Shown here: in pieces, positions 31,956 to 53,141 of the stretch
Layout: each line of letters opens with the position of its first letter
How positions within the stretch are numbered: the first letter of the stretch is position 1
Source: an uncultured Pseudomonadales bacterium
GTDB lineage: Bacteria; Patescibacteriota; Microgenomatia; UBA1400; UBA1449
Reading direction: 5' to 3'
Length of the DNA: 59,561 nucleotides
NCBI GenBank assembly: GCA_964386355.1
Contig: CAYLQQ010000007.1
Span: forward strand, 1-59,561
Position numbers and translations under genes: made by a program
Notes under the pieces: model-generated
The model's database searches: none
Seen by the model: the letters and a program-made list of their open reading frames with translations, nothing else
Told to the model about the DNA's origin: nothing

Positions 31956-32375
31956 CTAATTCCTCTGCCTCACAATCATCTGCTCAAGGTTTTCATATCC
32001 TATGAGCGAATCTTTCTTTTCAGATAGCAATCGGCCTTTTTTTGCATAATCCTGCATAGCACGTATTTTTCTTCGCATAACTCTTGGTAAGTTGATCTTT
32101 TCGTTTACTATTAGCCCCGTTACTGTCTGCCGTTGATGTTTGCGCAATATCCGAATCTTTTTCTTTTTCTGGATTGCGTATCCATAGTCATGTAATATCT
32201 TTCGTATCAAAGGAAAGATTTGTTGGGTAGCAGATGTAAACGTTTTAAAAGAAAAGGTCATATCATCAGCATAGCGACTATACGTTCCGCCAAACTTTTG
32301 AGTCAGCCTGGATAGTCTTGTATCCATTTGATAGTTAACCAGATTACTCAAATAGGGACTGGTTACTGGCAGTGC
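31956..32375 (-). pseudogene. retron-type reverse transcriptase, C-terminal half (split gene)
   Basis: The frame is open upstream of the listed Met and reads ...LPVTSPYLSNLVNYQMD...YSRYADDMTFSF (YADD)...RQTVTGLIVNEKINLPR (retron VTG motif). It lacks RT motifs 1-4, which are found at 51006-51530. Confidence 0.8.
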
Positions 32376-32478
32376 CGGTATAGAACCTTGTTGTCGCTAT
32401 AACTCGCGTTCGAGACTCTGGTAATTGGCAGTGCCGGTATGGAACCCCTTCGTCGCTATAACTCGAGTAAAACGAGAC
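32367..32478. repeat. two tandem ~50-nt direct repeats at the left junction of the inserted element
   Basis: Copy 1 (32367-32416): TGGCAGTGCCGGTATAGAACCTTGTTGTCGCTATAACTCGCGTTCGAGAC. Copy 2 (32426-32478): TGGCAGTGCCGGTATGGAACCCCTTCGTCGCTATAACTCGAGTAAAACGAGAC. Confidence 0.7.
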
Positions 32479-32520
32479 AAATGAGACAGTATAAAAAAGA
32501 GAATTGATCATACAAAGCTA

Positions 32521-32549
32521 TTGACATTGTACACACATGTATATACACT
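32521..32549 (+). promoter_or_regulatory. putative sigma70-type promoter of the RHH/Shedu gene pair
   Basis: TTGACA (32521-32526), 17 nt, then TACACT (32544-32549), just upstream of the 32556 ATG. Confidence 0.3.
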
Positions 32550-32555
32550 AGCTCT

Positions 32556-33440
32556 ATGAGAAAAAATCAAGTCATTAACATAACATTATCCGACGATTTG
32601 TTGCAGGCAGTCGATAAACAGGCTGAGATTGAATTAAGGAACAGGAGCGAGCTGTTCAGAGAAGCGGTACGGACGTATCTGTTTAGTAAAAATGCTGACA
32701 AGATGCATCAGGCGTTTACTGACAATGAATCAAATAGAGTGAACGACATAAAAAAATTCTCTGATTTTGAAAATTCCACTACTTTTGCATTGTCATGTTC
32801 GTTTCGACCACAACCAAATAAAGTTGAAGAGATTTTCTCTGGTAGCGGTTCCGACTTAATAAAGTACATTGAAGACCCGACGAGCTTCAGACGTATGGGA
32901 TGGGATATGAGAACGCTCGGGAGGGCTACTCCGGTAGCTGGTGAGTACCTACAGATAACAAATGGCGACCGCAAAATTATCAGGATTTATAGAGATGGAC
33001 AGATTGTATTTGCTGCAAGTGAAGATTTTTTTGGACATGGGGTAGAAGTTAATGAAGATGAGGTTGGTAAAATTTTCAGATTTAACAGCATGGCATCTGC
33101 TGAGTTGATATCAAATTTTGTCAATTTTTCTCTGGAAATCGGTAAATACCTGTCGGTTGATCCCTCCGGTATTGTTTATAAAATACGGATTTTCAATCCC
33201 AAAAGAAAACACCTTGAATTAACTTCCATAAACATGTTTAAAGAGAAAATGGGAGAATTGACACTCGATTTAGCTGACAGAGAGGTTTTTATCACTAGTG
33301 AAGATTTTAAGCCAGAAAAAATTGCTTTTACCATATGGGCCGAATTTAACTATCTTTTCGGAATTAGTGAAGACCACTTTGTTTATGTAGATAGAGGAGC
33401 AAAATTAATGAACTTCGAACAATTTTCAGAGAAGAGATAA
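32556..33440 (+). CDS. ribbon-helix-helix (CopG/Arc-like) domain protein with ~240-aa unknown C-terminal domain
   Basis: N-terminus INITLSDDLLQAVDKQAEIELRNRSELFREAVRTYL matches the RHH pattern. I cannot assign the rest. Confidence 0.6.
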   Translation: MRKNQVINITLSDDLLQAVDKQAEIELRNRSELFREAVRTYLFSKNADKMHQAFTDNESNRVNDIKKFSDFENSTTFALSCSFRPQPNKVEEIFSGSGSDLIKYIEDPTSFRRMGWDMRTLGRATPVAGEYLQITNGDRKIIRIYRDGQIVFAASEDFFGHGVEVNEDEVGKIFRFNSMASAELISNFVNFSLEIGKYLSVDPSGIVYKIRIFNPKRKHLELTSINMFKEKMGELTLDLADREVFITSEDFKPEKIAFTIWAEFNYLFGISEDHFVYVDRGAKLMNFEQFSEKR

Positions 33441-33442
33441 AT

Positions 33443-34621
33443 ATGGGTGAAAAGCAATTAATACAAGTCGATGTAAAAAATGATCGGTCTTTGAGCAAAT
33501 TGGGAACAGTTACAGTTTTTTTAACCCCTGAACTCAAAAAAGAGCTAGATGATGAAAAAACTAAAAATGGAGAAACACTGTCAGTTCTTTTTGCTCGAGG
33601 TATGGCTCTTAGAGGATTTAAGCATCTAGTTGAGAAAATTAGAGAGAAAAATCCCTCTATCAGAATAGTATTTACTCATGAGGCTACTTCAAAAGCCGAT
33701 GGATCAATCTACGTTGACTACGACGGCTACAAAAAAGCAACGTCGCAAAAGTTTTTCTCTTTTTATCGAGAAACCGGATTAGATGCAGCAAGTTATTATC
33801 TTAATCACTGTTTTCCAACTGAATACGCATACGACTCTTCTAAGGTATCCGAAGCCGACGTTAAAAAGTTTGAAAAAAATTTTGAGCAAGTCATATCACA
33901 GGTGCCTAAAAAAAGAAAAAATAAAAAGGCGTTAATTGACCAAACCTCTAAGGTAATATCAGAATTGTCAGCACAAAAGAAAATGCTAAAACAAGAGGTT
34001 GAGGATCTCGAAAAGCTTCGCAATACTTCAAATATCTTTTTCTTTCAAAGTAGACTGGAAGAACTTAAAGATAGACTCACAAAAACTTATCCTGAAACAA
34101 AAGGAAAGAACTCATGGCAAGAGTGGGTATATAAAAACAATTGGCTTTTTGGCATTAACTACCAACCCCCTATAGAAAAACAAAAAATTAACGTCGCAGG
34201 TAGCATGCCCGATTTTATCTTCCCCACAATGGACGGCTTTCTGGATATCTTAGAGATAAAACTCCCATCTAAAGCAATAATTGTTAAAGATGTTGATCAT
34301 AATAATTCTTTTGCATGGTCAAGCGATGCAAATAAAGCAATTGGTCAAGTCGTAACCTATTTAAACGAAATCGAACTGTATCAACTTCACTTAAGAGATG
34401 AAATCAAGCGTGTTTATAATTTTGACATTTATTTAATTAAACCTAGAGCTTTTATTTTGATAGGAAACAAAAATGGTTGGTCGGAAGAGCATCATAAAGC
34501 ACTTAGAAAACTCAACTATTCCCTTCATGGAATAGAAGTTTTGAGTTATTCTGACCTTTTGCAAAGAGGCAATGAAATTATTACCAACTACACCTATAAA
34601 TACTCAACAACTAGCAATTAA
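33443..34621 (+). CDS. Shedu-type (SduA, DUF4263) PD-(D/E)xK nuclease
   Basis: C-terminal SWQEWVYKNNWLFG...MPDFIFPTMDGFLDILEIKLPS...AIGQVVTYL...KPRAFILIGNK...LNYSLHGIEVLSYSDLL follows the DUF4263 pattern. Variable coiled-coil N-terminus. The start lies 2 nt after the RHH gene stop. Confidence 0.7.
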   Translation: MGEKQLIQVDVKNDRSLSKLGTVTVFLTPELKKELDDEKTKNGETLSVLFARGMALRGFKHLVEKIREKNPSIRIVFTHEATSKADGSIYVDYDGYKKATSQKFFSFYRETGLDAASYYLNHCFPTEYAYDSSKVSEADVKKFEKNFEQVISQVPKKRKNKKALIDQTSKVISELSAQKKMLKQEVEDLEKLRNTSNIFFFQSRLEELKDRLTKTYPETKGKNSWQEWVYKNNWLFGINYQPPIEKQKINVAGSMPDFIFPTMDGFLDILEIKLPSKAIIVKDVDHNNSFAWSSDANKAIGQVVTYLNEIELYQLHLRDEIKRVYNFDIYLIKPRAFILIGNKNGWSEEHHKALRKLNYSLHGIEVLSYSDLLQRGNEIITNYTYKYSTTSN

Positions 34622-34632
34622 TCAAATCCTTT

Positions 34633-36288
34633 TTACTTATCGTTAATATTTGCAATATTAGTTTTTGACTCTTGTTTAGAATATTTTTTCAGAAATTCCT
34701 GATTTTCCTTTACTAAATACACTGTGAAATAAGCATTTCCACTTTTGTCGAGTAAATCCCTGCCGTGTAACACGCCTTCTCGCCTCAATTTTTTGATAGA
34801 GGAGGGGTGGACTTCATGTTTTGATTGAATATCCCATTTCTCAAACCACACCTTCTTATCCTCATGGCGTGATTTTATATATGGAATGGTTTTGTTTTTG
34901 ATATTTCGCCAACAATCAGCACATCTCAAGCCATCCGGATTCCACCAAATTTCATTACCAGGATGGAGCTGGCTGCAAATACCACAATTGTAAGGGCCTT
35001 CACTAGCCTCTAAAAAGAAACCCTCAGGTTCATCCTTTAACCTTCGTTTGCGCATATTTTCAACACCATCATGTTCGCCAAAAAGTCGAGCCAGTTGCAC
35101 TAAATTATGAGAGGAATACTTTTGCCGCAACTCTTCACTGATTTTAGGTTTTGGTTTGGGTGCCTCTTTCTTACCCGCTAGTTTCAACATGTCTTCTTCT
35201 TGTTCATATCCTTTTAATCTGCCTTCCAAATATCCCAGACGATAATAGACACTGTTGGATACTAGACGCCAATTAGTATCTTCGAGCGTGTTTTTGACCA
35301 ATTTTTCTAGTTCTGACGCACTCGCTCTGTCTTTCCTGGATGAATCACTATCTTGAACCGTAAAGGGGACAATTACATATTTGCCGATTTCCGGTTTATC
35401 CAATGAGAGTTTGGTATATCGAGCTTCCTCCAGGGTAGTGGCAAGAAGTTTCTCTAAATCAGCAATAGTTGTCTTTTTGAGTTGAAGCGACCGCTGGTAA
35501 ACCGGACTATCATATTTTTGGGTTTCTTCTTCCCGAACCACAGTGGCTACCTCCATAGCCTCCATCAACTCGATATATTCTTTACCCTCCTTATCGGTTA
35601 AACAGAACTCACTGCGATATTTTTCCAACAGTTCTTTGTCTTTTTGTTGCTTAGCCTTCCATTCAGCGTCACTCTTTTCAAAATCATCAACCTCAACTTC
35701 TTTGTATTTACATGAGCTGCAAGTAATGGTGGTAGTTAAAACTTTTCCTTTCCGTTTGTATTTTCGTTTAAGTTCTTTACCACATTTTGGGCACGGTTCC
35801 GGAGTTGATACTCTTTCTTCGCCATCATCATAAATCCCACGGCGCTTCTTACACTTCAGGCACTCAAACATAAATAACACCCTCAGAGGTTTGTTATCGT
35901 CAAAATCTTCCAAGTGCTTAAAATCACCCGCCGTCATTTCAGTGTTGCAAGCAGAACAGAAAATATTTGATGGAGCAGGGGTGTTATCCAGCCTATCTTG
36001 TTTTACCCTATCTCGTTCAACCCATTCGGCAATTGTTTTCTCTCGTCTGCGATACCGCTCACCCTTAGTTACCCTCAGTTGCCAACCGTAATAATAATTG
36101 AAACCCTTTTCAACTTCTTCTGGAGGAATTTTCTTTAATTGTTTATCAGTATCTTTTTTCTTGTATAAATTCTGCCAAAACTTAACAACATGTAAGCATT
36201 CCTTTATTGTGAAAAGGTCATATAAGTCGTTATAGTGTTGTTCATCTTTTAGGTAGTCCATCATCTTCATTAGATGGTTCAGCAACAT
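34633..36288 (-). CDS. multi-zinc-ribbon protein, unknown function
   Basis: 551-aa ORF; the start is probably one of the Mets at 36261-36270. CxxC pairs: CSAC...CLKC, CPKC...CSSC, CGIC...CADC. No enzymatic motif recognised. Overlaps the 3' end of the DUF2130 gene. Confidence 0.5.
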   Translation of the reverse strand: MLLNHLMKMMDYLKDEQHYNDLYDLFTIKECLHVVKFWQNLYKKKDTDKQLKKIPPEEVEKGFNYYYGWQLRVTKGERYRRREKTIAEWVERDRVKQDRLDNTPAPSNIFCSACNTEMTAGDFKHLEDFDDNKPLRVLFMFECLKCKKRRGIYDDGEERVSTPEPCPKCGKELKRKYKRKGKVLTTTITCSSCKYKEVEVDDFEKSDAEWKAKQQKDKELLEKYRSEFCLTDKEGKEYIELMEAMEVATVVREEETQKYDSPVYQRSLQLKKTTIADLEKLLATTLEEARYTKLSLDKPEIGKYVIVPFTVQDSDSSRKDRASASELEKLVKNTLEDTNWRLVSNSVYYRLGYLEGRLKGYEQEEDMLKLAGKKEAPKPKPKISEELRQKYSSHNLVQLARLFGEHDGVENMRKRRLKDEPEGFFLEASEGPYNCGICSQLHPGNEIWWNPDGLRCADCWRNIKNKTIPYIKSRHEDKKVWFEKWDIQSKHEVHPSSIKKLRREGVLHGRDLLDKSGNAYFTVYLVKENQEFLKKYSKQESKTNIANINDK

Positions 36289-37642
36289 CGGGTAATTCTA
36301 AATAACTTACTTTTGGCAGAGCGTTACCTATCAAGCCTTGTAAATCACCATAGATTCCAGATGTATTGGCCATAACCTTCTGTATACTCTTTTCTTCTTC
36401 TTGCCACTTTTTATTAAAGTAAACACGCTCCTTGTTGATTTTCTCTTGTCTCTCACGGAAGTATTCCACCCACACTTCAATCCGCTGTTTGAACTCATTG
36501 CTAATTAGGTAGTTGTACACCACTTCAGCTTTGGTGGCTTTGCCTTCGTTGGCCAGCTGGGCCGACTGAACCTTAATCAACTGTTGCCGGAGAAGATATG
36601 CCACTCCTAGAACAGCCTTCATATCAGAAACCAACACTCCATCAACCGCACCAAAACCAACTATTTGATTCGGTAAGATGTTGGATACCAACACTGCCAA
36701 ATCAGCCTTAACCGCTCTTTGGTCTTCTTTAAGCTTGGGGATCCACGAAAATGTCCAATTCTTGGTTCGTTTCGACTCCCAAATGACGACTCCGCAAGGT
36801 TTACCCACCTGAGTCCTCACCACTTGCAACACATCGGCGCCGTTGACGCCTTTTGGAACTTCTTTGATTTCGTCAAATGGAAACTCAGCCTTGAGGATTT
36901 GTTCCAATTCCAACTCTTGAACCTCCCCCTGGAGCTGTTGTGAGCCCTGTTGGATCTTGCGTTGTAACTCAAGAATCTGTTTTTCGGCATCCTGGAGCTT
37001 CTTATCCTTTTCGGCAATCTTTAGGTCTAGCTCCTCTCTAGCTTCTTTTTTGGCATCATCTTTTATCTTGTCCTGACCTTCGAGTAACTTCTTCTCATAT
37101 TCAACTGACAATTTGTCTTTTTCATCCTTGAGTTCACGCATTTGTTTAAGCAAGTCTTGGAGTTGATCCCGCAATTCTTTATTCTGCTTGTCCCTAGCCT
37201 CTGCTTCCTCCTTGGAGGCGGCTAGCTGGGTTTCTAGCTCTTTGCGAACTTTCTCCTCCGCTTCTTTTCGTGCTTCTTCGGATGATTTCTTGCGAACCTC
37301 GTCCAACTCCTGCTCGTGTTGTCTTCTTGTCTTAGCCTTATCCTCTTTCAACTCCGACAACAACTTCTGATTGTCTTCCAATTCTTCTTTGAGTTGGCGG
37401 TTCCGTCTGGCGTTCGAGTCTGCTTCCTTCCTAACCGCTTCTACCGTGACTTCCAGCTCCTCTTTGGCTTTTTTCTCTACCTCAGCTTTAGTTGCCTCTG
37501 CCACCTCTTTTTTGGCTTCTTCTAGATCCTGCTGATGTTGGGCTTGTGATTCACGACGAATCGTTTCCTCAAGCTCGTGCTTGTATGCATCTCCTGGTTC
37601 GAACAACTCTCCACACTTTGGACATTTGATTTGATTTGTCAT
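36242..37642 (-). CDS. DUF2130-like protein (N-terminal zinc ribbon, long K/E coiled coil, C-terminal nuclease-like domain)
   Basis: IKCPKCGELFE, then ~200 aa of a K/E-rich heptad-like region, then GADVLQVV...GVVIWESKRTKNW (D...ExK-like). Confidence 0.6.
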   Translation of the reverse strand: MTNQIKCPKCGELFEPGDAYKHELEETIRRESQAQHQQDLEEAKKEVAEATKAEVEKKAKEELEVTVEAVRKEADSNARRNRQLKEELEDNQKLLSELKEDKAKTRRQHEQELDEVRKKSSEEARKEAEEKVRKELETQLAASKEEAEARDKQNKELRDQLQDLLKQMRELKDEKDKLSVEYEKKLLEGQDKIKDDAKKEAREELDLKIAEKDKKLQDAEKQILELQRKIQQGSQQLQGEVQELELEQILKAEFPFDEIKEVPKGVNGADVLQVVRTQVGKPCGVVIWESKRTKNWTFSWIPKLKEDQRAVKADLAVLVSNILPNQIVGFGAVDGVLVSDMKAVLGVAYLLRQQLIKVQSAQLANEGKATKAEVVYNYLISNEFKQRIEVWVEYFRERQEKINKERVYFNKKWQEEEKSIQKVMANTSGIYGDLQGLIGNALPKVSYLELPDVAEPSNEDDGLPKR

Positions 37643-37660
37643 ATAAATTTACTCTGTATT

Positions 37661-39745
37661 TTATTTGGTGATCGACCTTACTAAAGTTGCGAGTACCGAC
37701 TGCGAGCTGACTTCAACATTATCAATAATTTGCTGAGCATAACTAATACTCATAGCTTTTTGCCTCTCTAAATCACCTAAGATATCATCCAAAAGTTCAC
37801 CAATTCTATGTTGCTCATCATATTCAGGGGCTGGGAATTGGAGTTTTCTAATATGTCGATCGTTTAAAGCTGGATAGTGTGCGCCTCGCATTAACAAGTG
37901 ATATTGGTTGATAAGCTGTGGTGAAATAAGCATATAGTAGAGAAACTTAGGATCTGCTTGGTTATCGCTTCTTAGCACCGCAAATCCTGTTGAGCAAATT
38001 TGGTTATCAAATGCCTCTGTTACGACAGCGTGCCCGCACAGGTATGGTCTAACTGTGGATAGAACTACATCCCCTTCACGAATAACACGTCTTGCTCGAG
38101 ATGGAGCTTCAGAACCTAGTATTAATTTTACATTTTCGAATGTATTTAAACTAACCGAAGAAATATCAACATACTGAAATTCTGTTTTAGATGATTCTTT
38201 AGCAGGATTTCTATTTTCAGGATTTATCTTCACTCCCATTTCTTCCAAAGTTTTAAGAGGGTATCGATCTAACTTACTAAGTATTGGCGAAATCAAACGA
38301 ATTGACTTAGCTAACCCATCAACACTTGAATCTAATCTATCGCACGAACGATTAAGCTCCTCAGATAACTGGTTAATATCCCTAATCACAACTCCGCCAG
38401 TTTTTTTCGGGTGATGTAAATCTAAATTAAATTTGTCTTCTCCGACTGCTTCCCTGGTTACCTTCCAAGCATATTCGTTTTCAACTCTTTCCCCCCACCA
38501 AGAATTTAATGGTTCAAACTCTTCATATAAGAGGGGTTTTGATTTTATATAGCAAGGATTCTTTAGTTTCTGTCTGTCAGGAGGTAGTGGGTGGTCATAA
38601 TACCAAATATGTTTAGTCTTATTCTGTTTTTCAATAAATACTAATGACGTTTCTTGATCTGTATAAGGAGAAAACACTCCCTTTGGTAGTTTAATGATTG
38701 AATGCAAGTTAAAGTCATCTAAAAGCGCCTGTTTTATTTTTTGAGCAACACCTTCTCCAAACAAAAACCCTGGAGGTAACACTATTCCACATCTCCCTCC
38801 ATTTTTTAATAACCTCATAATATATTGCATAAAAAGCAATGTTGTTTCGGCTGTCCTCATACTCATCGGGAAATTGTCCTGGATGCCTTTTTCTTCCTCA
38901 CCACCAAATGGAGGGTTAGTTAGGATTACGTCAAACTTGTCCTTTTCGGTAATTTCCTTGAGTGGAGTGGTTAGCGTGTTTCGACGCTGAATGTTGGGAG
39001 TCTCGATACCATGAAGCATCAAATTCATTGTGCCAAGAAGATACGGCATTGGCTTTTTCTCAATACCAAAGAAGGTTTTGTATTGAAGCTGGTCATAATC
39101 CTCGGCTGTCTTGGCTTGCTGCTTCATATACTCATATGCTTCCACCAAGAAACCACCAGTGCCACAGGCCGGGTCCAAAACCTTCTCTCCTAACTTTGGT
39201 TTAATATGCTCCACGATGAACCGCACCACTGGCCTGGGGGTGTAAAACTCACCACTCGAACCGGCAGCGTCTCGCATCTCCTTGAGCATACTTTCATAAA
39301 GATGGGAGAGGGTAAAAATGTCGTCTTTGGATTGAAAGTCAATTTCATCGATAAGATTGATTATTTCTCGAAACAGGTAGCCCGACAGCATTCGATTGTA
39401 GGTCTCGGCAAAAAGCGAGGCAAGAACGTCTCTAGGATCATTCTCTTTAGTTCCCTTCAACTCTCTTAGGTAAGGTATCAACTTATCGTTTACATACTTG
39501 ATCAAGTCATCACCAGTGATTCCCTCGTCGTTACTTGCCCAATCTCGCCAGCGGTGTGGCTTTTCGATTACTGATCGATGACCGGAAATCAGGGCTTCAT
39601 TGCGCTTCTCTAGATCGTCAAAAAACTTAAGAAACAACATCCACGAGAGCTGGGGTGTGCGATCGACATCCGTCGACAACCCCGCGTCCTTGCGCATTAT
39701 GTTTCTGGCTCGTTTAATGATGCTGGTTAGTTGTTGTTTTTTCAT
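37661..39745 (-). CDS. hsdM: type I R-M N6-adenine methyltransferase fused to a single-TRD specificity (HsdS-half) domain
   Basis: HsdM_N (PQLSWMLFLKFFDD). Motif I DPACGTGGFL. Motif IV NPPFGG. C-terminal ~200 aa has an HsdS target-recognition pattern (FQYVDISSV...GDVVLSTVRPYL...STGFAVLR...FLYYML) plus one conserved helix. Confidence 0.85.
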   Translation of the reverse strand: MKKQQLTSIIKRARNIMRKDAGLSTDVDRTPQLSWMLFLKFFDDLEKRNEALISGHRSVIEKPHRWRDWASNDEGITGDDLIKYVNDKLIPYLRELKGTKENDPRDVLASLFAETYNRMLSGYLFREIINLIDEIDFQSKDDIFTLSHLYESMLKEMRDAAGSSGEFYTPRPVVRFIVEHIKPKLGEKVLDPACGTGGFLVEAYEYMKQQAKTAEDYDQLQYKTFFGIEKKPMPYLLGTMNLMLHGIETPNIQRRNTLTTPLKEITEKDKFDVILTNPPFGGEEEKGIQDNFPMSMRTAETTLLFMQYIMRLLKNGGRCGIVLPPGFLFGEGVAQKIKQALLDDFNLHSIIKLPKGVFSPYTDQETSLVFIEKQNKTKHIWYYDHPLPPDRQKLKNPCYIKSKPLLYEEFEPLNSWWGERVENEYAWKVTREAVGEDKFNLDLHHPKKTGGVVIRDINQLSEELNRSCDRLDSSVDGLAKSIRLISPILSKLDRYPLKTLEEMGVKINPENRNPAKESSKTEFQYVDISSVSLNTFENVKLILGSEAPSRARRVIREGDVVLSTVRPYLCGHAVVTEAFDNQICSTGFAVLRSDNQADPKFLYYMLISPQLINQYHLLMRGAHYPALNDRHIRKLQFPAPEYDEQHRIGELLDDILGDLERQKAMSISYAQQIIDNVEVSSQSVLATLVRSITK

Positions 39746-39748
39746 AGG

Positions 39749-41449: not shown

Positions 41450-41450
41450 A

Positions 41451-43856: not shown

Positions 43857-43936
43857 AGATCAAATTTTTCTTAATTACTCAGACATTATTTTACCACCAG
43901 ACTAAATACTTAGTCATGCTTAGATTTAAGTTTTTG

Positions 43937-43966
43937 TTGACAATAATATCGCGGATATGCTAAATA
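43937..43966 (+). promoter_or_regulatory. putative promoter for the ParB-methylase/terminase operon
   Basis: TTGACA (43937-43942), 17-18 nt, then CTAAAT/TAAATA. It is followed by a ~130-nt leader with a 9-bp hairpin (43981-44010) and a strong RBS AAGGAGG before the 44101 ATG. Confidence 0.3.
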
Positions 43967-44100
43967 TTATATAAAGATATTTGTCCTTCAAATTCATGAC
44001 CGAAGGACAACTCGCATAGAAGGCGGGTGTTAGAGAACTATTACAAAAATATTTCTCTGGCATCCGCTTTTTTGGTTGTCAGATCATAAGGAGGTCGCTT

Positions 44101-45432
44101 ATGACAGCACCCAACAATAATTTAAAAGTCGAGTATGTTCCTATCGAACAACTCAATCCAGCCATATATAACCCACGTAAATGGTCTGATGAGAAGACTA
44201 AACAATTGAAGGAAAGTATTAAAAAGTATGGTTTGGTAGATCCATGCGTAGTTAATCAGTCAACTGGAAGAGAGAATATTGTAATTGGCGGACATTTCCG
44301 GTTAAAAGTTGCCAAAGAGCTAGGTTATAAAACTGTCCCCGTTGTTTATCTCAATATTCCCGACATTGACACTGAGAAAGAGCTAAATATCCGGCTCAAT
44401 AAAAATCTAGGCGAATGGGACTGGGAGTTATTAACTAATTTCTCTGAAAAATTGTTAGATAATATCGGCTTCACCAGTCAGGAACTCGATAATATTTTTG
44501 ACATTGATACCGATAATCCCGAACAGTTCGACCTGCAAAAAGAACTAGAGAAACTTGATATTCACCAGGTCACCATGAAGAAGGGTGAAGTATACAAGCT
44601 TGGTGAGAGCAGGCTTATGATTGGGGATTCGACCATTAAAGATGATTTTTTGAAGCTGATGAATGGTGAAAAGGCGGATATGTGCTTAACGGATGAGCCA
44701 TATCTCCTTGATTACACTAACGCAAAGCGTCACGGAAAGCCTACAACCGGATTCGGAGCCAAGCGTAATCGCAGATATCTTGAGACTGAAACTCTGCCAC
44801 CCAACTTTATTTCACTTTGGATGGCTAACGTGGCAAAAACCGCCAAGCCCGATTTTAGTATTATCTCCTATGAGAACTGGAAAAACGTTAGAGCCATGTG
44901 GAATGAAATGGAAAAATACTGGAAAGTCCGCAATATGCTGATTTGGCGGTTACCAAACCGGCACCAGGGATTTTCAGCCAAGTATAGGTTCTTCTCAAAA
45001 TATGATATTGCAATGATAGGCACGGGAGGAAAAAGAGAACTAAATACGGCTGCTGAAGAAGAACTTCTGCAAAATGAATATGAAACGGCTTTATTTGCAA
45101 CTTCTGGCAAGCCTCATTGGGAAAGTTATCAGAAGGGCAAGAAAAACCAACCCACTGACTTTATTGAGTTCAATGCTTCCGACGAAAAACACTCCGGACA
45201 AGGGGTAATCTTTGGCACCAAGCCGATTGAGATTCTAATCCCGTACATCAAAGTTCTCACCAAACGGGGTGATCTGATTATTGAACCCTTTGGCGGTTCG
45301 GGTAGCACATTGATTGCTGCCGAGAAAATGAAACGACGCTGTTATGTGATGGAAAAAAGCCCGGTCTATGCCGAGGTAATTCGCAAACGCTGGGAAAGAT
45401 TAACCGGACAGAAAACAGAAAGGATCATATGA
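44101..45432 (+). CDS. ParB-like nuclease domain fused to DNA (N4/N6) methyltransferase
   Basis: ParB box YVPIEQLNPAIYNPRKWSDEKTKQLKESIKKYGLVDPCVVN...GGHFR. Methylase motif IV-like TDEPY. Motif I IIEPFGGSGSTLIAAEKM. Confidence 0.85.
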   Translation: MTAPNNNLKVEYVPIEQLNPAIYNPRKWSDEKTKQLKESIKKYGLVDPCVVNQSTGRENIVIGGHFRLKVAKELGYKTVPVVYLNIPDIDTEKELNIRLNKNLGEWDWELLTNFSEKLLDNIGFTSQELDNIFDIDTDNPEQFDLQKELEKLDIHQVTMKKGEVYKLGESRLMIGDSTIKDDFLKLMNGEKADMCLTDEPYLLDYTNAKRHGKPTTGFGAKRNRRYLETETLPPNFISLWMANVAKTAKPDFSIISYENWKNVRAMWNEMEKYWKVRNMLIWRLPNRHQGFSAKYRFFSKYDIAMIGTGGKRELNTAAEEELLQNEYETALFATSGKPHWESYQKGKKNQPTDFIEFNASDEKHSGQGVIFGTKPIEILIPYIKVLTKRGDLIIEPFGGSGSTLIAAEKMKRRCYVMEKSPVYAEVIRKRWERLTGQKTERII

Positions 45433-45863
45433 GCACCAAAACTATTGCTAAACGAATCCAGAAACAACAGGAACAATTCCTAGAACAGTGCCGGAAGCTA
45501 CCCATTATTCAGGTAGTCTGCGAAAGATCCGGTATCAGTCGGGCAACTTATTACAGATGGCGCAAAGAGTTCCCAGATTTTTCTAAGGAAGCTGATCAAG
45601 CCATTCAGGAAGGCAAATTACTGGTTAACGATATGGCGGAGTCACAACTGCTAAACGCTATCAAAGACCACAATATGACTGGAATCATTTTTTGGCTGAA
45701 ACACCACCACCGTGATTACGCCACCAAGGTTGAAATATCCACCGCCCCCAAAGACAAAGAGAATTTAACCAAAGAGCAAGAAGATTTAGTTAAAAAATCT
45801 TTGGTGATGGCCGGACTTATCGGAGAAAGGAGGCAGGATGAAGCCGATAGAGCCAATGAATGA
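45429..45863 (+). CDS. HTH protein, terminase small subunit-like
   Basis: ERSGISRATYYRWRKEFPDF HTH. ATGA overlap with the methylase gene and a 26-nt overlap with the terminase large subunit gene. Confidence 0.5.
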   Translation: MSTKTIAKRIQKQQEQFLEQCRKLPIIQVVCERSGISRATYYRWRKEFPDFSKEADQAIQEGKLLVNDMAESQLLNAIKDHNMTGIIFWLKHHHRDYATKVEISTAPKDKENLTKEQEDLVKKSLVMAGLIGERRQDEADRANE

Positions 45864-47394
45864 GAATCTTCTACGCCAGATTAACACCAGTCGAAGCTTC
45901 AGGCGAAAATTAGCCACGAGCAGCCATTACTGGTTTTTCCATATCTACTTTAGCCACTACATCAAGTACCAGACTGCTGATTTTCAAAAGGAGATGTTTA
46001 CCATCACTGAAAATGAGCAGAATAAACTGGCAGTGATTGTGGCTTTTCGGGGATCAGCTAAATCCACCATTGCTTCATTGTCCTTCCCGATCTGGGCAAT
46101 GCTGGGTAAATTGCAGAAGAAATTTATTATCATCACCAGCCTGACATCTAATCAAAGCAGGTTACTACTCACCGCTATCAAAAATGAGTTAGAAACCAAT
46201 GAACTACTGATCAATGATTTCGGGCCATTCGATGAAGACGATCAGGAATGGCGGTCTAATTCGTTAGTGATCAAAAAATACGGAACCAGAATCTCATCCT
46301 TCTCTACCGGAGAGGCTATTCGTGGCTCGAAGCACAACCAATACCGCCCTGACCTGATTATTTGTGATGATATAGAAGATTTATCGTCAGTTAAAACCAA
46401 AGAGAGCCGTGATAAAACCCATCAATGGTTAACCGGAGAAGTGATTCCGGCGGGAGACACCAATACCAAGGTGGCCGTAGTCGGTAACTTACTACATGAA
46501 GACTCGGTTATCTGCCGATTGGACGAGAATATTAATGAAGGCATTCTTAGTGGAGTGTTCCGTAAATACCCACTCCTGGATGGGCAGGATAGGTCGCTGT
46601 GGCCGGGTAAATTTCCTGATCAGCAGTCAATTAAAAATCTACAAAGCCAGGTAGCCAATGATCAGGCTTGGCATCGGGAATATCTACTCCACATCATCTC
46701 TGATGCGGAAAGGGTCATTCATCCAGAGTGGATCCAATACTATGATCGGTTGCCGGGAAAAAGTAACCCCACTGGGTTTCAATTTATAGCTACGGGGGTG
46801 GATTTAGCCATTTCCCAAAAACACTATGCCGATAATACGGCTATGGTTTCGGTACAAACCCATCGGATCGGGAGTAGGTACATGTTCTACATCCTACCCA
46901 ATCCGATCAATCAAAAACTATCGTTCCCGGATACCGAGCAGATGCTAAAAGATATTTCCATGCTCCTAGACTCATACCTATATATAGAGGAGGTTGGATA
47001 TCAGGCATCTATTATTCAGGATTTGACGCAGGATGGCTATCATGCAACCGGGGTCTCACCCAAAAGCCAGGACAAAAGAACCAGGTTATCATTAATCTCG
47101 CACCTAGTTAAAAACGGAACCATACTGTTTCCCAAGTTCGGCTGTGAAGATTTAATCAAACAAATGGTCGGTTTTGGCATCGAAAAGCATGATGATCTGG
47201 TTGATGCCTTAACCACCCTAATTCTGGGCATCATAGGCAAGCCTCCGTATACAGGAGAAGTAAGAGCTGTTCCAATTGAAAATTTCTACAACAGCAGGAT
47301 TATCTCGTCCCGAAGCGATGATTGGGCAGAGGAAGAAGACAGACAGATATTCAGAAAGTTAAAGTCCCGAAACCATCATCGGATTTACGGTTAG
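45838..47394 (+). CDS. phage terminase large subunit-like protein
   Basis: Walker A-like VAFRGSAKST. Walker B DLIICDDIED. Nuclease-domain acidic residues (GVDLAIS..., KHDDLVDAL). Confidence 0.7.
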   Translation: MKPIEPMNENLLRQINTSRSFRRKLATSSHYWFFHIYFSHYIKYQTADFQKEMFTITENEQNKLAVIVAFRGSAKSTIASLSFPIWAMLGKLQKKFIIITSLTSNQSRLLLTAIKNELETNELLINDFGPFDEDDQEWRSNSLVIKKYGTRISSFSTGEAIRGSKHNQYRPDLIICDDIEDLSSVKTKESRDKTHQWLTGEVIPAGDTNTKVAVVGNLLHEDSVICRLDENINEGILSGVFRKYPLLDGQDRSLWPGKFPDQQSIKNLQSQVANDQAWHREYLLHIISDAERVIHPEWIQYYDRLPGKSNPTGFQFIATGVDLAISQKHYADNTAMVSVQTHRIGSRYMFYILPNPINQKLSFPDTEQMLKDISMLLDSYLYIEEVGYQASIIQDLTQDGYHATGVSPKSQDKRTRLSLISHLVKNGTILFPKFGCEDLIKQMVGFGIEKHDDLVDALTTLILGIIGKPPYTGEVRAVPIENFYNSRIISSRSDDWAEEEDRQIFRKLKSRNHHRIYG

Positions 47395-47443
47395 TCTACC
47401 GACACTGCGCTTGACTTGACCAGTTGTTGCGGTACTGTTTAAC

Positions 47444-48736
47444 TTGATGCAACAACAGATTATCACCGACGATCAGGCTAAATACTGTCTCTATGCCCGC
47501 AAATCAACTGAAGGCGATGAGCGACAAGCCATGTCGATTGATTCCCAAATCAAAGAGATGACAGCCATTGCCAATAGGGACGGGATTCAGATCACTGATA
47601 TCAGAGAGGAACGATTTTCAGCCAAGATGTCCGGCTCAAGGCCAGTATTTAATAGTATTCTGACTGACATCCGCAGTGATCACTTTAATGCGATTTTGAC
47701 TTGGGCTCCTGACCGCCTAAGTAGAAACGCCGGAGATCTGGGGATGCTCGTGGATCTCATGGATCAGGGCAAGCTTCAATTTATTAAGACCTTCTCCCAA
47801 ACCTTCACCAATAGTCCCAATGAAAAATTTCTACTTATGATCCTCTGTAGTCAGGCTAAGCTGGAAAACGACAATAAAGGAATCAATGTCAAAAGAGGCA
47901 TCAGAGCCAAATGTCAGATGGGCTGGCGACCCGGCATGGCTCCACTGGGTTACTACAATCGGGCATTCAACGGAGTTAAGGATATTATTATCGATCCGGA
48001 GCGAGGTCCGAAAATCACCGAGGCCTTTGAACGGGTGGGGATACATGGAAAAAGCGGTTGGGATATCAAACGCTGGTTTGATAAAGTCGGATTTCGCAAC
48101 CGCTCCGGAGCCAAAGTCACTATCAGCCAAGTATATCTGTTACTCAAAAACCCGTTCTATTATGGTGAATTTGAGTACCCACTGGATAGTGGAAGCTGGT
48201 ACAAAGGCTCGCATCCGCCACTAATCAGTAAGGAACTATTTGAACAGACCCAGGAACAATTGAAGGTGCCTCAAAAATCCAAATGGGGTGCCAAGCAGTT
48301 CACATTCAAAGGACTATTTAAATGTGGAGAGTGCAGATCGACCATTATCGGTGAGGAGAAGTTTAAAAAGCTATTAAACGGCAAAACCAACAGACATGTT
48401 TACTACCATTGTTCCAAGCAATTAAATCAGTGCCGACAACCGTACCTGAACGAAAAGGCAATGTTAAAGCAATTACGGGATCTAGTCGCCAATCTGGATG
48501 AAAGCAAACTCAAGCTCTCTTACGGACTGAAACTAAAAATTGATGCATATCGCAAAATTCAGCAGGAAGTGTTTATTCAACACAACCTCAACCCGACCAA
48601 CCAGGAATCATCGCTAAAGCAATATGCGCTATTCACCTTATGGGAAGGAGCCAGTCAGGATCAGAGAGAATTAATCCAGGGACTAAACCTCAATATCGTC
48701 CTCAAAGATAAACAAGTAGAGATCAAAAATAGTTAG
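47444..48736 (+). CDS. large serine recombinase (integrase)
   Basis: Resolvase catalytic domain YCLYARKSTEGDERQAMSIDSQ...TWAPDRLSRN. Recombinase domain (GWRPGMAPLGY). Zinc ribbon CGECRS...YYHCS. Coiled-coil tail. Confidence 0.85.
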   Translation: MMQQQIITDDQAKYCLYARKSTEGDERQAMSIDSQIKEMTAIANRDGIQITDIREERFSAKMSGSRPVFNSILTDIRSDHFNAILTWAPDRLSRNAGDLGMLVDLMDQGKLQFIKTFSQTFTNSPNEKFLLMILCSQAKLENDNKGINVKRGIRAKCQMGWRPGMAPLGYYNRAFNGVKDIIIDPERGPKITEAFERVGIHGKSGWDIKRWFDKVGFRNRSGAKVTISQVYLLLKNPFYYGEFEYPLDSGSWYKGSHPPLISKELFEQTQEQLKVPQKSKWGAKQFTFKGLFKCGECRSTIIGEEKFKKLLNGKTNRHVYYHCSKQLNQCRQPYLNEKAMLKQLRDLVANLDESKLKLSYGLKLKIDAYRKIQQEVFIQHNLNPTNQESSLKQYALFTLWEGASQDQRELIQGLNLNIVLKDKQVEIKNS

Positions 48737-49812
48737 TCGGGAAAGTTAGTTAACAATTCTTTCAATTGATTAATGGTCACATCTTTAAGCGACCACTTAG
48801 CCAATTTACCGGAGTTAAAATTCGAAGGTTGGTTTAACTCGATTCCGGGAAATTTAGTAGTAAATATCGGTTTTAGTTTGTTGTAATTTTCCTGGTTCCA
48901 AAAACCATTATTAAAGGCAATGCCTAACGAACCGTTATCGTATGTTGGATCAACATGAAGGCTAATCGTAATTTTATTTGCGTTGAGATGAAGATAGAAA
49001 TTCAGGGACTTACTGCCTTTGGCTACGCTGACAGTTTTAAGTTCCGATTCTCCGGTATTGATCTGATTAAACAAAGTCACAATTTGGCCGACCACTTCTC
49101 CAAGCCCTACGTCTGAATAGGCTTGAGTAAAATCATCATCTCCCAGGACTCGTTTGGATGAAACAGACGATATATCCTTCTTAACTTGAGCTCCAAAAAG
49201 TTTAGGGATAGTGATTTCCAAGTCTTCATGCTGGTAATACTCAAGCTCGACGGCATAAATATCAAATTCACTGTTCTGGTTAATGAAAGTTATTAAATCC
49301 CGTAGTTGTTGGTGGAGCGAGTCCATTAGTACCACCAACTTAAATCGGCCATTTTGCAGATTGGTTTTAATATTGGTAATAAGATCTTGGGCTTGTGGAG
49401 TATCAATTTCATAAAACTCAGTTAATTTAGTTATCAAATCAATCTGGCTCTGTCTTTGAAGTTGACCGTTTAGATCAGTAATGAAATCATCGCCAGAACG
49501 GTAGTTGGCCCAAAGCGAGGCGGCATAATCAAGTATTTGAGCGACAACCTTACGCTTGTCAGCATTTCTGAATAGTTTTGTCTCTACCAGGTAGATTTCA
49601 CCGTCTTTATCAACCCCGACGGCATCAATCGGGCCGGATTGGCTGGGGAATTCTCTTACTAAAACAGACAAATGGATATCGTCTTTGATGTCATACAAAG
49701 GAATAGCTTCAGGATTCTGGTGAATATACTCCTGCAAGTGATCCTCCAGAATAAATGGAGATGAATTGACTTTGACCGATTTGTGGCCTTTTTGAGTGAT
49801 TAGTATCGACAT
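48733..49812 (-). CDS. NucS/DUF91-like PD-(D/E)xK nuclease-domain protein with unknown C-terminal domain
   Basis: LEDHLQEYIHQNPEAI...GPIDAVGVDKDGEIYLVETKLFRNADKRKVVAQILDYAASL matches the D...E.K pattern. I cannot assign the C-terminal ~230 aa (possibly DUF4268-like). Confidence 0.5.
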   Translation of the reverse strand: MSILITQKGHKSVKVNSSPFILEDHLQEYIHQNPEAIPLYDIKDDIHLSVLVREFPSQSGPIDAVGVDKDGEIYLVETKLFRNADKRKVVAQILDYAASLWANYRSGDDFITDLNGQLQRQSQIDLITKLTEFYEIDTPQAQDLITNIKTNLQNGRFKLVVLMDSLHQQLRDLITFINQNSEFDIYAVELEYYQHEDLEITIPKLFGAQVKKDISSVSSKRVLGDDDFTQAYSDVGLGEVVGQIVTLFNQINTGESELKTVSVAKGSKSLNFYLHLNANKITISLHVDPTYDNGSLGIAFNNGFWNQENYNKLKPIFTTKFPGIELNQPSNFNSGKLAKWSLKDVTINQLKELLTNFPD

Positions 49813-49898
49813 ATTGGTTAAAAATCCTGGTTTAATACTAACTTACAGTTAGCAAATAATCAAGCTATCTACCAGGCGTAAATGCTAACTCTCACTTA

Positions 49899-50147
49899 GT
49901 GGAGCAAATAACCTTCCCAGGCAACAATAATGTCATGAGGAAGAACGCCAAATTACCACGAGTACTCGGTAAGAAAGTCCAAAAAAGAAGAAAGGAACTA
50001 GATCTAACCCAGGAAGATGTAGCTTATAAAGTCGGTATTAGTAGGGCTTATATGGGTTATATCGAGCAAGGAAGAAATATACCTTCGCTGGAAATGTTGG
50101 AGAAAATTGCCAGAGTTTTGAAAGTCAAAACAAAAGATCTTCTTTAA
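49899..50147 (+). CDS. XRE-family HTH transcriptional regulator
   Basis: LTQEDVAYKVGISRAYMGYIEQGRNIPSLEMLEKIARVLKV. The likely true start is the ATG at 49935. Confidence 0.8.
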   Translation: MEQITFPGNNNVMRKNAKLPRVLGKKVQKRRKELDLTQEDVAYKVGISRAYMGYIEQGRNIPSLEMLEKIARVLKVKTKDLL

Positions 50148-51013
50148 TGCTTCTTTATCTGCTTCGGGTCGATTAAGTTTAATGTTGTATAGAAGAAATT
50201 GACCCATTTTTGATGTACTGACTTCAATTCAGTGTGTGGGTCAGGTGTTAGATTTTTTGCAATTCTAGTCAAACCTTTGTCCCCATGAAGATCTTTATAA
50301 CTAATTTCTTTTCCGAGGAGTAATGAGTGCTGTGGACTTCCAACTCCATCTATCGCTAAGGCGTCAGATATAAGTTGCCAATGTTGGCTCTTTTTTATTT
50401 GTTTCTTCGAAATCACTTGAACAATCTTAAGTAAATCTCCCTTATAATGCTCTAATGTATTTCTCATGGCTATTGCAGCAGATTTCGGTGGTACTGCCCC
50501 CGAAAAAGCTGATATACATGCGGTGTTTGCCTCAATAAATTCAGCTGAACGATCCGGATTTAAAGTAGCTAGCTTTTCAATTACTTCGTTTGTACTATTT
50601 TTCTTTTCCCAAAAATTAAAGTATTGAGAATGATATTTTATCGACCAATCTTGCACAAACTGCGGTTGTGAGGGATTGTTTAAACTATTAATCTGACTAA
50701 AAACAACATCCGATGTAGTAGCTGAAGCTGCACTTCCGGAAGCAGTAACATAAAATGGAGAATTAATTGAAATTTTGGGAAGTGATTTTTCCCAAAGGGT
50801 ATAGTCACTTTCAACCGTTCCATATATGTAAGAGTCATCGAAACTGTTTGCTACTTCACTTGGAGCATCGCCGATTGCAGCGATTGACAGCTCCGTTTCT
50901 TCTTTCGCTTCTTGTACTAATGGAACTAAATCATTAATTTTCTTAGCATCGTCTAAAAAGCTTGTAAGCAATTTATGCTTCTTGTTAAGTAGTATTTGGG
51001 TCTTTTTACTCAT
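50144..51013 (-). CDS. hypothetical protein at right end of the element
   Basis: 289-aa ORF with no recognisable motif. Its ATG overlaps the artificial stop of the truncated RT N-half (ATGAGTAA). Confidence 0.45.
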   Translation of the reverse strand: MSKKTQILLNKKHKLLTSFLDDAKKINDLVPLVQEAKEETELSIAAIGDAPSEVANSFDDSYIYGTVESDYTLWEKSLPKISINSPFYVTASGSAASATTSDVVFSQINSLNNPSQPQFVQDWSIKYHSQYFNFWEKKNSTNEVIEKLATLNPDRSAEFIEANTACISAFSGAVPPKSAAIAMRNTLEHYKGDLLKIVQVISKKQIKKSQHWQLISDALAIDGVGSPQHSLLLGKEISYKDLHGDKGLTRIAKNLTPDPHTELKSVHQKWVNFFYTTLNLIDPKQIKKH

Positions 51014-51530
51014 AGTGAATATTTGGAGTAAGTACGGTCACTCTCTCTAGAGTGTACAAAGCTGCTGCACCCTGCGGTAAGCCACCCTGGAAGCAGCAGA
51101 TATTTGTAAGTATACGTGCGCTTGTCCTTCCCCATCCTAATCTTTTAAAATAATCATAAACTCGCTGGTTCTTTGTAGAAATAAAAAAATCTTTTAAATC
51201 TATATTTATTATGACTTCTGAGCTTATATGTTGCTTTGCATTGTGAACAATAGATTTTTTTGGAATAAACCCAGTTGAAGCAACATGACAAGGAATGGGC
51301 TTGAGAAGCCGGTGGTAAATAGTTTTTTGGAGCTTCTTTAAATTCTGATCAGGAGCACTTATAACTCTATAATCTATGCCGTTTTTCTTTGGTACCTGAA
51401 ATTGGGTATACCCAAATGTTTCGGGTATACCTGATTTCCAGATTATGAGTTCATTTACAGGCAGATTTAACCATACTGATAAATCTGAAACTAAGCGCCC
51501 CCCTTCAAATAGGTTTGAAAACCAGCTCAT
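51006..51530 (-). pseudogene. retron-type reverse transcriptase, N-terminal half (split gene)
   Basis: YRVISAPDQNLKKLQKTIY, GFIPKKSIVHNAKQH (retron NAxxH), INIDLKDFF and GGLPQGA, followed by 19 unrelated codons and a stop. Confidence 0.8.
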
Positions 51531-51540
51531 GTAAAAAAAA

Positions 51541-51680
51541 GAAACTGCCGCTGTTTTGCAATTACTTTATCTGAAATTCAGATAAAGTAATTCTACCGGC
51601 TCACAAGTACAGCAACTGTACCCGGGTGACGAAACATCAACCTAAGCCTCAAAGGCTTCACCAAAACACACGGCAGTTTC
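51541..51680 (-). ncRNA. candidate retron msr/msd non-coding RNA
   Basis: Inverted repeats GAAACTGCCG (51541-50) and CGGCAGTTTC (51671-80) bracket three hairpins, including a perfect 15-bp stem (51560-51592). It lies immediately 5' of the RT start on the RT strand. Confidence 0.55.
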
Positions 51681-51780
51681 GATATTTAATTTTAGCATAA
51701 ATATATACAGCAAAAATACGAACTCATACATATAGTACTGATACTTCTCAGACAGGTTCTTATTTTGAAACTACATAGTA

Positions 51781-53109: not shown

Positions 53110-53141
53110 TACTCTTCATCTCCAAGTTCTGTCGTAAACAG

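Follow-up and report, generated by a model that had tools for sequence, protein, structure and literature searches.

Serine-recombinase elements that reside inside genes and excise reversibly include the A118/phi10403S-type prophages in Listeria comK and the Anabaena fdxN element (XisF), both of which use a dedicated and conserved attB in the target gene. In P4-like satellites and phage-inducible chromosomal island (PICI)-type islands, the integrative backbone is conserved, and defence cargo that can be exchanged occupies fixed slots in it. The interruption of genes by serine-recombinase elements, with exact reconstitution of the gene on excision, is well known and is described in two reports (PMC5499854, PMC5025042). 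In the classification of Mestre et al. (2020; PMC7736814), retrons fall into types I–XIII, and each type combines a reverse transcriptase (RT) with an msr-msd RNA and an effector. Here we analyze a 59,561-nt stretch, contig CAYLQQ010000007.1 (the window, to which coordinates refer unless another locus is named), in which a retron RT gene is split by an inserted island that encodes a large serine recombinase and several anti-phage systems. Literature searches turned up no retron RT into which an integrative element has inserted, nor a gene interruption of this kind in a host from the candidate phyla radiation (CPR). The host is probably related to Candidatus Beckwithbacteria, as judged from the relatives of its UvrC protein.

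We attribute the split, with a probability of about 0.78, to a recent, off-target integration of a tRNA-targeting serine-recombinase island into a secondary site within the RT gene of an effector-less retron. The interrupted gene consists of two pieces:

51065–51530, minus strand: RT N-terminal fragment (codons 1–155 and the first base of codon 156; positions 2–123 of Pfam RVT_1)
31956–32365, minus strand: RT C-terminal fragment (last two bases of codon 156, codons 157–291 and the stop; positions 124–203 of Pfam RVT_1)

An earlier reading of the window made without database searches (hereafter the sequence-only reading) had described two RT open reading frames (ORFs) with their motifs, and both were recovered as described. 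The ORF at 51006–51530 (minus strand) ends its RT part with CCFQGGLPQGA; 19 unrelated codons (AALYTLERVTVLTPNIHYE) then lead to a stop at 51006, and this tail is read-through into the P' arm of the element. The frame of the ORF at 31956–32351 (minus strand) stays open as far upstream as 32396; it contains IPALPVTSPYLSNL, with RQQGSIPALPVTSPY preceding the TTG, and holds VTSPYLSNL, YSRYADDMTFS (with the YADD motif) and the QTVTGLIVN region. The proposal that the pieces abut inside one conserved motif also holds, as they meet to the residue on the RVT_1 profile (123 to 124), and the insertion site falls within the most conserved RT motif of a 12-sequence alignment.

Joining the pieces in silico and aligning the product to retron RTs, a check that the same reading had suggested, yields a single-stretch match. 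The joined RT matches 54 retron RT models of PADLOC, with RT_XIII as the best one (5.3e-75, residues 16–275), and is colinear over 96–100% of its length with intact RTs of 291–296 amino acids, the closest of which (locus L001) shows 61% identity in a search of 5.8 billion proteins. Its relatives at ~50% identity are annotated as retron-type RTs and come from Candidatus Shapirobacteria and other phyla; the score for NCBIfam retron_St85_RT (218.6 bits) is slightly under the cut-off of 235. All intact relatives in the 12-sequence alignment read LPQGA-(P/V)TSP without additional residues, and therefore the correct join is LPQGA|VTSPYLSNL. Thus, the predicted RT of ~300 amino acids stands as a colinear product of 291 residues, whereas the join first proposed for it, LPQGA-LP-VTSP, is two codons (6 nt) too long. 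YADD is intact in the joined protein, as are the 67 positions at which the alignment shows no variation. The exact intact 291-amino-acid RT was absent from a collection of ~15 billion sequences, and a metagenome scan for RT relatives returned only intact RTs at no more than 45% identity, using C-terminal, score-ranked patterns by which split genes could be missed.

The uninterrupted gene, which was to be sought in related sequences according to the sequence-only reading, was found by exact look-up of the N-fragment ORF. It lies on L087, a 2,077-bp Logan contig from run SRR8925812 that carries a 130-amino-acid member of the N fragment's 90% cluster and has flanks 99.7–99.9% identical to those in the window. 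Positions 1–1456 of L087 correspond to window 52521 to 51065 (99.93% identity) and positions 1454–2042 to window 32368 to 31780 (99.66% identity); the two alignments share exactly 3 nt, CAG on the RT strand. Since L087 is contiguous with this 3-nt overlap, the insert is a discrete segment of 18,699 bp with the following boundaries:

32369–51064: integrated element (18,699 bp with one copy of the core, 32369–51067; absent from L087)
51065–51067: attL crossover core (CTG on the plus strand, CAG on the minus strand; the 3-nt overlap of the L087 alignments)
32366–32368: attR crossover core (CTG on the plus strand, CAG on the minus strand)

The joints are conservative, with a short common 3-nt core, no long target duplication and a contiguous empty site. 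The coding part of the C fragment is 100% identical to L087, the N fragment is 100% identical except for a 1-nt deletion in L087, and the only two substitutions in the C-side flank (31784 and 31787) lie outside the RT. The GC content of the element is 40.8% vs. 36.2% in the flanks. Removal of the insert in silico gives an 876-nt ORF (291 codons and a stop) that is identical to the contiguous L087 allele apart from the deletion in the latter, in agreement with the earlier suggestion that excision could restore the retron gene. The L087 deletion (AAAAGATT to AAAAATT, L087 ~1379, window ~51142) comes from one short-read contig and may be an assembly error; it throws the RT out of frame near codon 130, and L087 is annotated with two ORFs instead, of 130 and 123 amino acids. 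Thus, each of the only two alleles on record for this RT carries its own inactivating lesion, that of L087 resting on this one short contig.

On the RT (minus) strand, the true attB reads ...GGCTTACCGCAGGGTG-CAG-TAACCAGTCCCTATTTG..., the corresponding 63-mer being GCTGCTTCCAGGGTGGCTTACCGCAGGGTGCAGTAACCAGTCCCTATTTGAGTAATCTGGTTA; the reconstructed attP 63-mer is AGCGACAACAAGGTTCTATACCGGCACTGCCAGCAGCTTTGTACACTCTAGAGAGAGTGACCG. In the reconstructed attP, a short palindrome (CTGC-CA-GCAG) points to CA as the likeliest crossover dinucleotide. Essentially no dyad symmetry is seen in attB, with matches at 1 of 20 positions centred on CA and at 7 of 20 centred on AG. The imperfect inverted repeat that was previously taken for attB, GGTTACTGGCAG-tgcac-CCTGCGGTAAGCC, was a product of the wrong join: it includes 6 nt of element DNA, and the 30-nt join is absent from L087.

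The recombinase of the element carries the domains PF00239, PF07508 and PF13408 and a YARKS motif, the Ser20 of which is invariant in 28 relatives. Among the NCBIfam models, XisF is its second-best match (70.7 vs. a cut-off of 375) and CcrB scores 104.5 vs. a cut-off of 900; these scores are far under the cut-offs, and thus the recombinase belongs to neither the XisF nor the CcrB family. The ends of the element are marked by two kinds of arms:

51031–51064: P' arm (conserved in L086 and L002)
32369–32468: P arm, two copies 59 bp apart (family D2; 84% identity between the copies)

These arms are kept among related elements while the flanks differ, P' in L086 and L002, and P in L089 and L090. 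Together with the core (51031–51067), the P' arm shows 94.6% identity to its counterpart in L086 and 84% to that in L002. The outer copy of the P arm (32369–32409) abuts the RT and resembles the arm of L089, the inner copy (from 32428) runs on into the element body and is identical to the arm of L090, and both L089 and L090 have a single copy. Each copy in the window is preceded by CTGGT(T/A)A(C/T)-TG (32359–32468). The duplication, which provides the element with two alternative attR sites, has the appearance of a remnant left when two element lineages integrated in tandem, or one inside the other, and subsequently collapsed; a search of the island for a second P' arm or a nested element found neither. 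Separate IMG/VR searches for the P arm and the P' arm gave 0 matches each. A degenerate P' arm likewise had 0 matches in a metagenome collection that lacks the fitting contig of L086, so that this negative carries no weight.

A further sequence similarity was observed next to the cores. The flank beside the P' arm of L002 (L002 8023–8043) reads GCACTGGTTGACTATTTGGAG outward from the core, and the B' arm in the RT (window 32347–32365, minus strand) reads TAACCAGTCCCTATTTGAG; CTATTTG occurs in both at nearly equal distance from the crossover. The shared heptamer could be a half-site motif of the recombinase or a coincidence.

The recombinase belongs to a very large family, found mostly in Patescibacteria, with 8,000 scored matches at 55–60% identity. 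No RT fragment occurs within 10 kb of the recombinase at any of 80 genome loci with relatives of 48–68% identity. For 59 loci, L006–L075, which encode serine recombinases of ~430 amino acids, the surroundings were scanned for tRNA genes; a tRNA adjoins the recombinase in 41 of these, namely tRNA-Gln in 26 and another tRNA (Asn, Ser, Met, Lys or Glu) in 15. Such tRNAs are located downstream of the recombinase gene on the opposite strand, often within a few hundred bases. The closest relative of the recombinase, 95.6% identical, is encoded in L086, where the P' arm abuts the 3' end of tRNA-Gln(UUG) (...CCCTGGTTTCC-CAG-CAGCTTTGTACAC...) and the junction lies inside the 3' acceptor end of the tRNA (L086 6666–6737). 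Since the family is mostly found at tRNAs and the closest relative at tRNA-Gln, the RT is an exceptional target for this family; because tRNA 3' ends, mainly those of tRNA-Gln, are its normal targets, the RT site is most likely a secondary one (pseudo-attB). Compared by eye, the RT attB and the tRNA-Gln attB agree only in the CAG core and, on the arm opposite, in a half-site resembling CTGGTT(A/T)C, a similarity too weak to call. The DNA at the insertion motif in the closest intact RT (L001) was also compared: CCTCAGGGAGCGGTTACCAGTCCATAT vs. CCGCAGGGTGCAGTAACCAGTCCCTAT.

The proposed sequence of events is as follows. The recombinase of the island would have exchanged strands at the CA (or AG) dinucleotide in RT codons 155–156 (GCA|GTA). 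The N fragment, comprising the fingers and part of the palm, now reads into the P' arm and terminates after 19 codons, and the YADD-bearing C fragment is stranded 18.7 kb away without a promoter or a start. The separation of the YADD half from the promoter-proximal half implies that the retron should be dead: it could presumably still make the msr-msd RNA, but not multicopy single-stranded DNA (msDNA). The previous claim that a mobile defence island integrated into the RT gene and truncated it is thus borne out, in that the remaining product lacks YADD and the thumb. Since exchange by serine recombinases is conservative, recombination between attL and the outer attR would rebuild the 291-amino-acid gene exactly; nothing indicates that excision is regulated or that it occurs.

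A structured RNA precedes the RT gene:

51535–51680, minus strand: retron msr-msd non-coding RNA (a1 GAAACTGCCG and a2 CGGCAGTTTC inverted repeats; ends 5 nt upstream of the RT start codon)

This 146-nt region has a minimum free energy of −63.2 kcal/mol (z = −6.97 vs. dinucleotide shuffles). The same architecture is found 5' of the RT in L001, L004 and a dozen relatives at 40–45% identity. It includes an a1/a2 helix of 8–17 bp whose sequences vary by locus and yet pair in at least 14 relatives, a conserved TTGG(T/C)G directly after a1, a near-invariant GGCUGAUGUUUCGUCAGCC hairpin with compensatory changes at three of its eight pairs, and a long msd-like hairpin. Alignment of 14 of these RNAs by MAFFT followed by RNAalifold recovered the central hairpin alone and misaligned the variable ends, and the a1/a2 pairing was scored per sequence instead. 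A search against Rfam 15 at gathering scores reported only tRNAs, with no match in the msr-msd region. By its RT and RNA, the locus is a retron.

No effector could be assigned to this retron. The 291-amino-acid RT has no fused domain, and its neighbours in the window are a T2SSE ATPase and a GrpB protein. In 10 relatives, the genes downstream of the RT are unrelated housekeeping ones, including those for a histidine kinase, PIG-L, UppS, SDR and an aldolase, with 0 PADLOC matches, and no effector was found beside the RT in L001 and L004 either. Type XIII retrons have a SWIM/winged-helix protein and ARM-repeat partners (PMC7736814), all of which are absent here and beside the relatives, and a retron-survey preprint of 2026 contains nothing relevant on effector-less or Patescibacteria retrons. 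The description of the retron as another defence system is therefore an unproven assumption, as no conserved effector gene accompanies this RT or its relatives.

The RT clade (L001, L004 and L091–L119) spans CPR, Planctomycetota, Anaerolineae and other groups and has a well-conserved RNA; at every locus examined, the RT-RNA module lies among unrelated housekeeping genes, with neither a conserved effector neighbour nor a domain fused to the RT. A HemW-like radical-SAM gene and the T2SSE ATPase gene adjoin the retron both in the window (51781–54260) and in L001 (4708–8190), with the retron on one side of the T2SSE gene in the window and on the other side in L001. To judge from this placement, either the RT-RNA cassette itself may have moved or the region may have been rearranged.

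An assembly chimera, in which the island and the RT halves were wrongly joined by the assembler, is extremely improbable. The window is a metagenome-derived contig and the evidence is at the contig level; however, both junctions are present not only on the NCBI contig but also together on SRR11845627_5493, a Logan contig of 31.8 kb that was assembled independently and is recorded for three samples, the breakpoints share the 3-nt core and fall at the ends of arms conserved in related elements, and the two flanks are contiguous in L087. Also very unlikely is a regulated switch of the active-lysogeny type, as in skin/sigK and SPbeta/spsM, where the recombinase and a directionality factor would excise the island and turn the retron back on. 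Such a switch would account for the exact ORF expected upon excision, the undecayed RT halves that are identical to the contiguous allele, the intact recombinase and att junctions, and the empty site in a near-identical strain, and the known examples are driven by serine recombinases (PMC5499854, PMC5025042). Undecayed halves are, however, equally predicted by a recent insertion, and the insertion has been seen in one lineage only, the site not being conserved among carriers of the element family. The occupied site was assembled from run SRR11845627 and the empty one from run SRR8925812, so that the pair does not demonstrate excision within one population. No directionality factor is identifiable, such factors having no common sequence signature, and use of the inner P-arm copy as a competing attR would leave 59 bp and a frameshift in the gene. 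The analogy with skin/sigK and comK drawn in the sequence-only reading is consequently not upheld: relatives of the recombinase lie at tRNAs in 41 of 59 loci and near an RT in 0 of 80, the 95.6%-identical recombinase resides at tRNA-Gln(UUG), and the empty allele itself is frameshifted.

Dedicated targeting of retrons, by which the recombinase evolved to recognise the DNA that codes for LPQGAxTSPxLSN and the island disarms a resident retron, is unlikely. It would explain the position of the insertion in the most conserved RT motif, and the closest intact RT has similar DNA at the site; furthermore, the 4.4% of amino acids that differ between the window and L086 recombinases are mostly in the zinc-ribbon/C-terminal DNA-binding part. 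Against it, the event is a single occurrence, the 95.6%-identical recombinase with its near-identical P' arm uses tRNA-Gln, no RT fragment lies near the 80 relatives, and a retron without an identifiable effector offers little to threaten an incoming element. A broader version, in which a recombinase variant acquired the RT motif as a bona fide attB so that insertion and excision toggle the retron or disarm it on entry, is decidedly unlikely; if true, it would represent a conflict of defence against defence resolved by site-specific recombination and, for retrons as well as for Patescibacteria, the first switch on record that works by gene interruption. A neutral insertion into a retron that was already dispensable or decaying, and whose disruption was tolerated, is possible, though we consider it rather doubtful as a separate account, being compatible with and partly contained in the off-target integration favoured here. 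Two independent inactivating lesions in the sole two known alleles, whose DNA is 99.9% identical, the lack of an effector gene and the absence of the exact intact protein from the 15-billion-sequence collection speak for it, whereas the ORF is perfect apart from the lesions and keeps the 67 invariant positions, and the L087 deletion may, as stated above, be an assembly error.

Several observations weigh against an off-target integration from a tRNA-specific family into a once functional retron. The tRNA junction was verified at the base level in L086 only, the other loci being scored by adjacency. In L002, a recombinase of 72% identity with the same type of P' arm lies beside neither a tRNA nor an RT. 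The clustering of the C-terminal differences from the L086 recombinase could reflect a genuine change of target specificity, and the duplicated P arm is not accounted for by this reading. Finally, this RT is known from no more than two alleles, a split and a frameshifted one, so that the retron was functional before the insertion only presumably, on the grounds of its intact frame, the 67 invariant positions and the intact RNA.

The gene content of the element was analyzed using PADLOC, Pfam and PHROGs, and comprises the following genes:

32556–33440, plus strand: ribbon-helix-helix (RHH) protein (Pfam RHH_1)
33443–34621, plus strand: Shedu SduA (PADLOC, 8.5e-73)
34633–36288, minus strand: 551-amino-acid Zn-ribbon protein (first gene of the variable defence cargo slot, 34633–43856)
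36242–37642, minus strand: DUF2130 protein (Pfam DUF2130)
37661–39745, minus strand: HsdM fused to an HsdS with a single target recognition domain (PADLOC MTase_I, 1.2e-178)
39749–41449, minus strand: OLD/Gabija-like ATPase-TOPRIM protein (PADLOC Old, 3.7e-45; Pfam OLD-like_TOPRIM)
41451–43856, minus strand: HsdR (PADLOC REase_I, 8.9e-235)
44101–45432, plus strand: ParB-N/DNA methylase fusion (phrog_498, 1.3e-84)
45429–45863, plus strand: TerS-like helix-turn-helix (HTH) protein (phrog_309, 1.8e-11)
45838–47394, plus strand: TerL-like protein (phrog_38, 1.9e-76)
47444–48736, plus strand: large serine recombinase, integrase (Resolvase, Recombinase, Zn_ribbon_recom; PHROG integrase, 8.6e-58)
48733–49812, minus strand: 359-amino-acid protein of unknown function
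49899–50147, plus strand: Cro/CI-type HTH protein
50144–51013, minus strand: 289-amino-acid unknown cargo (variable slot beside the P' arm)

The presence of a large serine recombinase and phage-like genes in the insert, noted previously, was confirmed by the recombinase domains and the TerS/TerL-like genes. Several anti-phage systems recognized by PADLOC are clustered in the element, namely Shedu, a type I restriction-modification (R-M) system and an Old/GajA-like ATPase. Capsid, portal and tail genes were not found, the PHROG matches being limited to the TerS-like, TerL-like, ParB-methylase, integrase and repressor-like HTH proteins. The gene content identifies the element as an integrative defence island with packaging-type genes rather than a prophage. 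L086 shares 85% nucleotide identity with the element over window 44560–50148 and has a different gene (242 amino acids) in the slot of the 289-amino-acid gene before the P' arm. L089 and L090 are 90–91% identical at the nucleotide level over the P arm, RHH and Shedu; in both, DUF87/NurA/DruA genes replace the R-M cluster, after which the sequences rejoin at the ParB-methylase. From these comparisons, the backbone is composed of RHH-Shedu, the ParB-methylase, the TerS/TerL-like proteins, the serine recombinase and the Cro-like HTH protein, with two variable cargo slots, occupied in the window by the type I R-M/OLD/DUF2130 cluster and by the 289-amino-acid protein.

Two gene arrangements within the cargo and backbone were also recorded. 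The OLD ATPase-TOPRIM gene (39749–41449) sits between hsdR and the hsdM-hsdS fusion (694 amino acids) in window 37661–43856, and the three genes share one strand, their ends overlapping or abutting as would be expected of a single operon. The RHH protein of ~295 amino acids is always encoded directly upstream of SduA, with overlap between the two genes (window 32556–34621, L089 10001–12075, L090 143–2220), and this constant pairing suggests a two-gene Shedu variant or a dedicated regulator.

The locus is a single event with no sign of regulation and involves a retron of putative function. It provides a base-resolved case in which a mobile defence island knocks out another putative immune element, the site being documented in its occupied as well as its empty state, and indicates that defence repertoires can be remodelled by collisions between elements, besides gain and loss. 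It also supplies a usable set of attB, attP, attL and attR for an uncharacterised large serine recombinase of Patescibacteria. The tRNA-associated (mostly tRNA-Gln) recombinase family that moves modular defence islands, and the widespread clade of retron-like RTs and RNAs without a linked effector, may matter more than the split gene itself.

In comparison with the described systems, the RT gene differs from the targets of the Listeria comK prophages and the fdxN element in that it looks exceptional for the recombinase family. As in SPbeta/spsM (SprA/SprB) and skin/sigK (SpoIVCA), a large serine recombinase element interrupts a protein-coding gene, and conservative recombination at a short core would restore the frame exactly (PMC5499854, PMC5025042). 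In those systems, including the C. difficile skin element, the insertion occupies one fixed site in different strains, and a known directionality factor times excision to development, whereas here we observe a single insertion; in addition, the interrupted gene encodes a retron RT and the host is a non-sporulating CPR bacterium. Like the classified retrons (PMC7736814), the interrupted one has an RT (with RT_XIII as the best match) preceded by a structured RNA with a1/a2 repeats; unlike type XIII retrons, it has no SWIM/winged-helix or ARM-repeat partner and no fused domain. With respect to P4-like satellites and PICI islands, the comparison of the element with L086, L089 and L090 reveals the same organization of a backbone with swapped cargo, and the element resembles satellites in carrying TerS/TerL-like packaging-type genes without capsid or tail genes. 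It differs from both in encoding a large serine recombinase instead of a tyrosine integrase and in residing in a Patescibacteria host.

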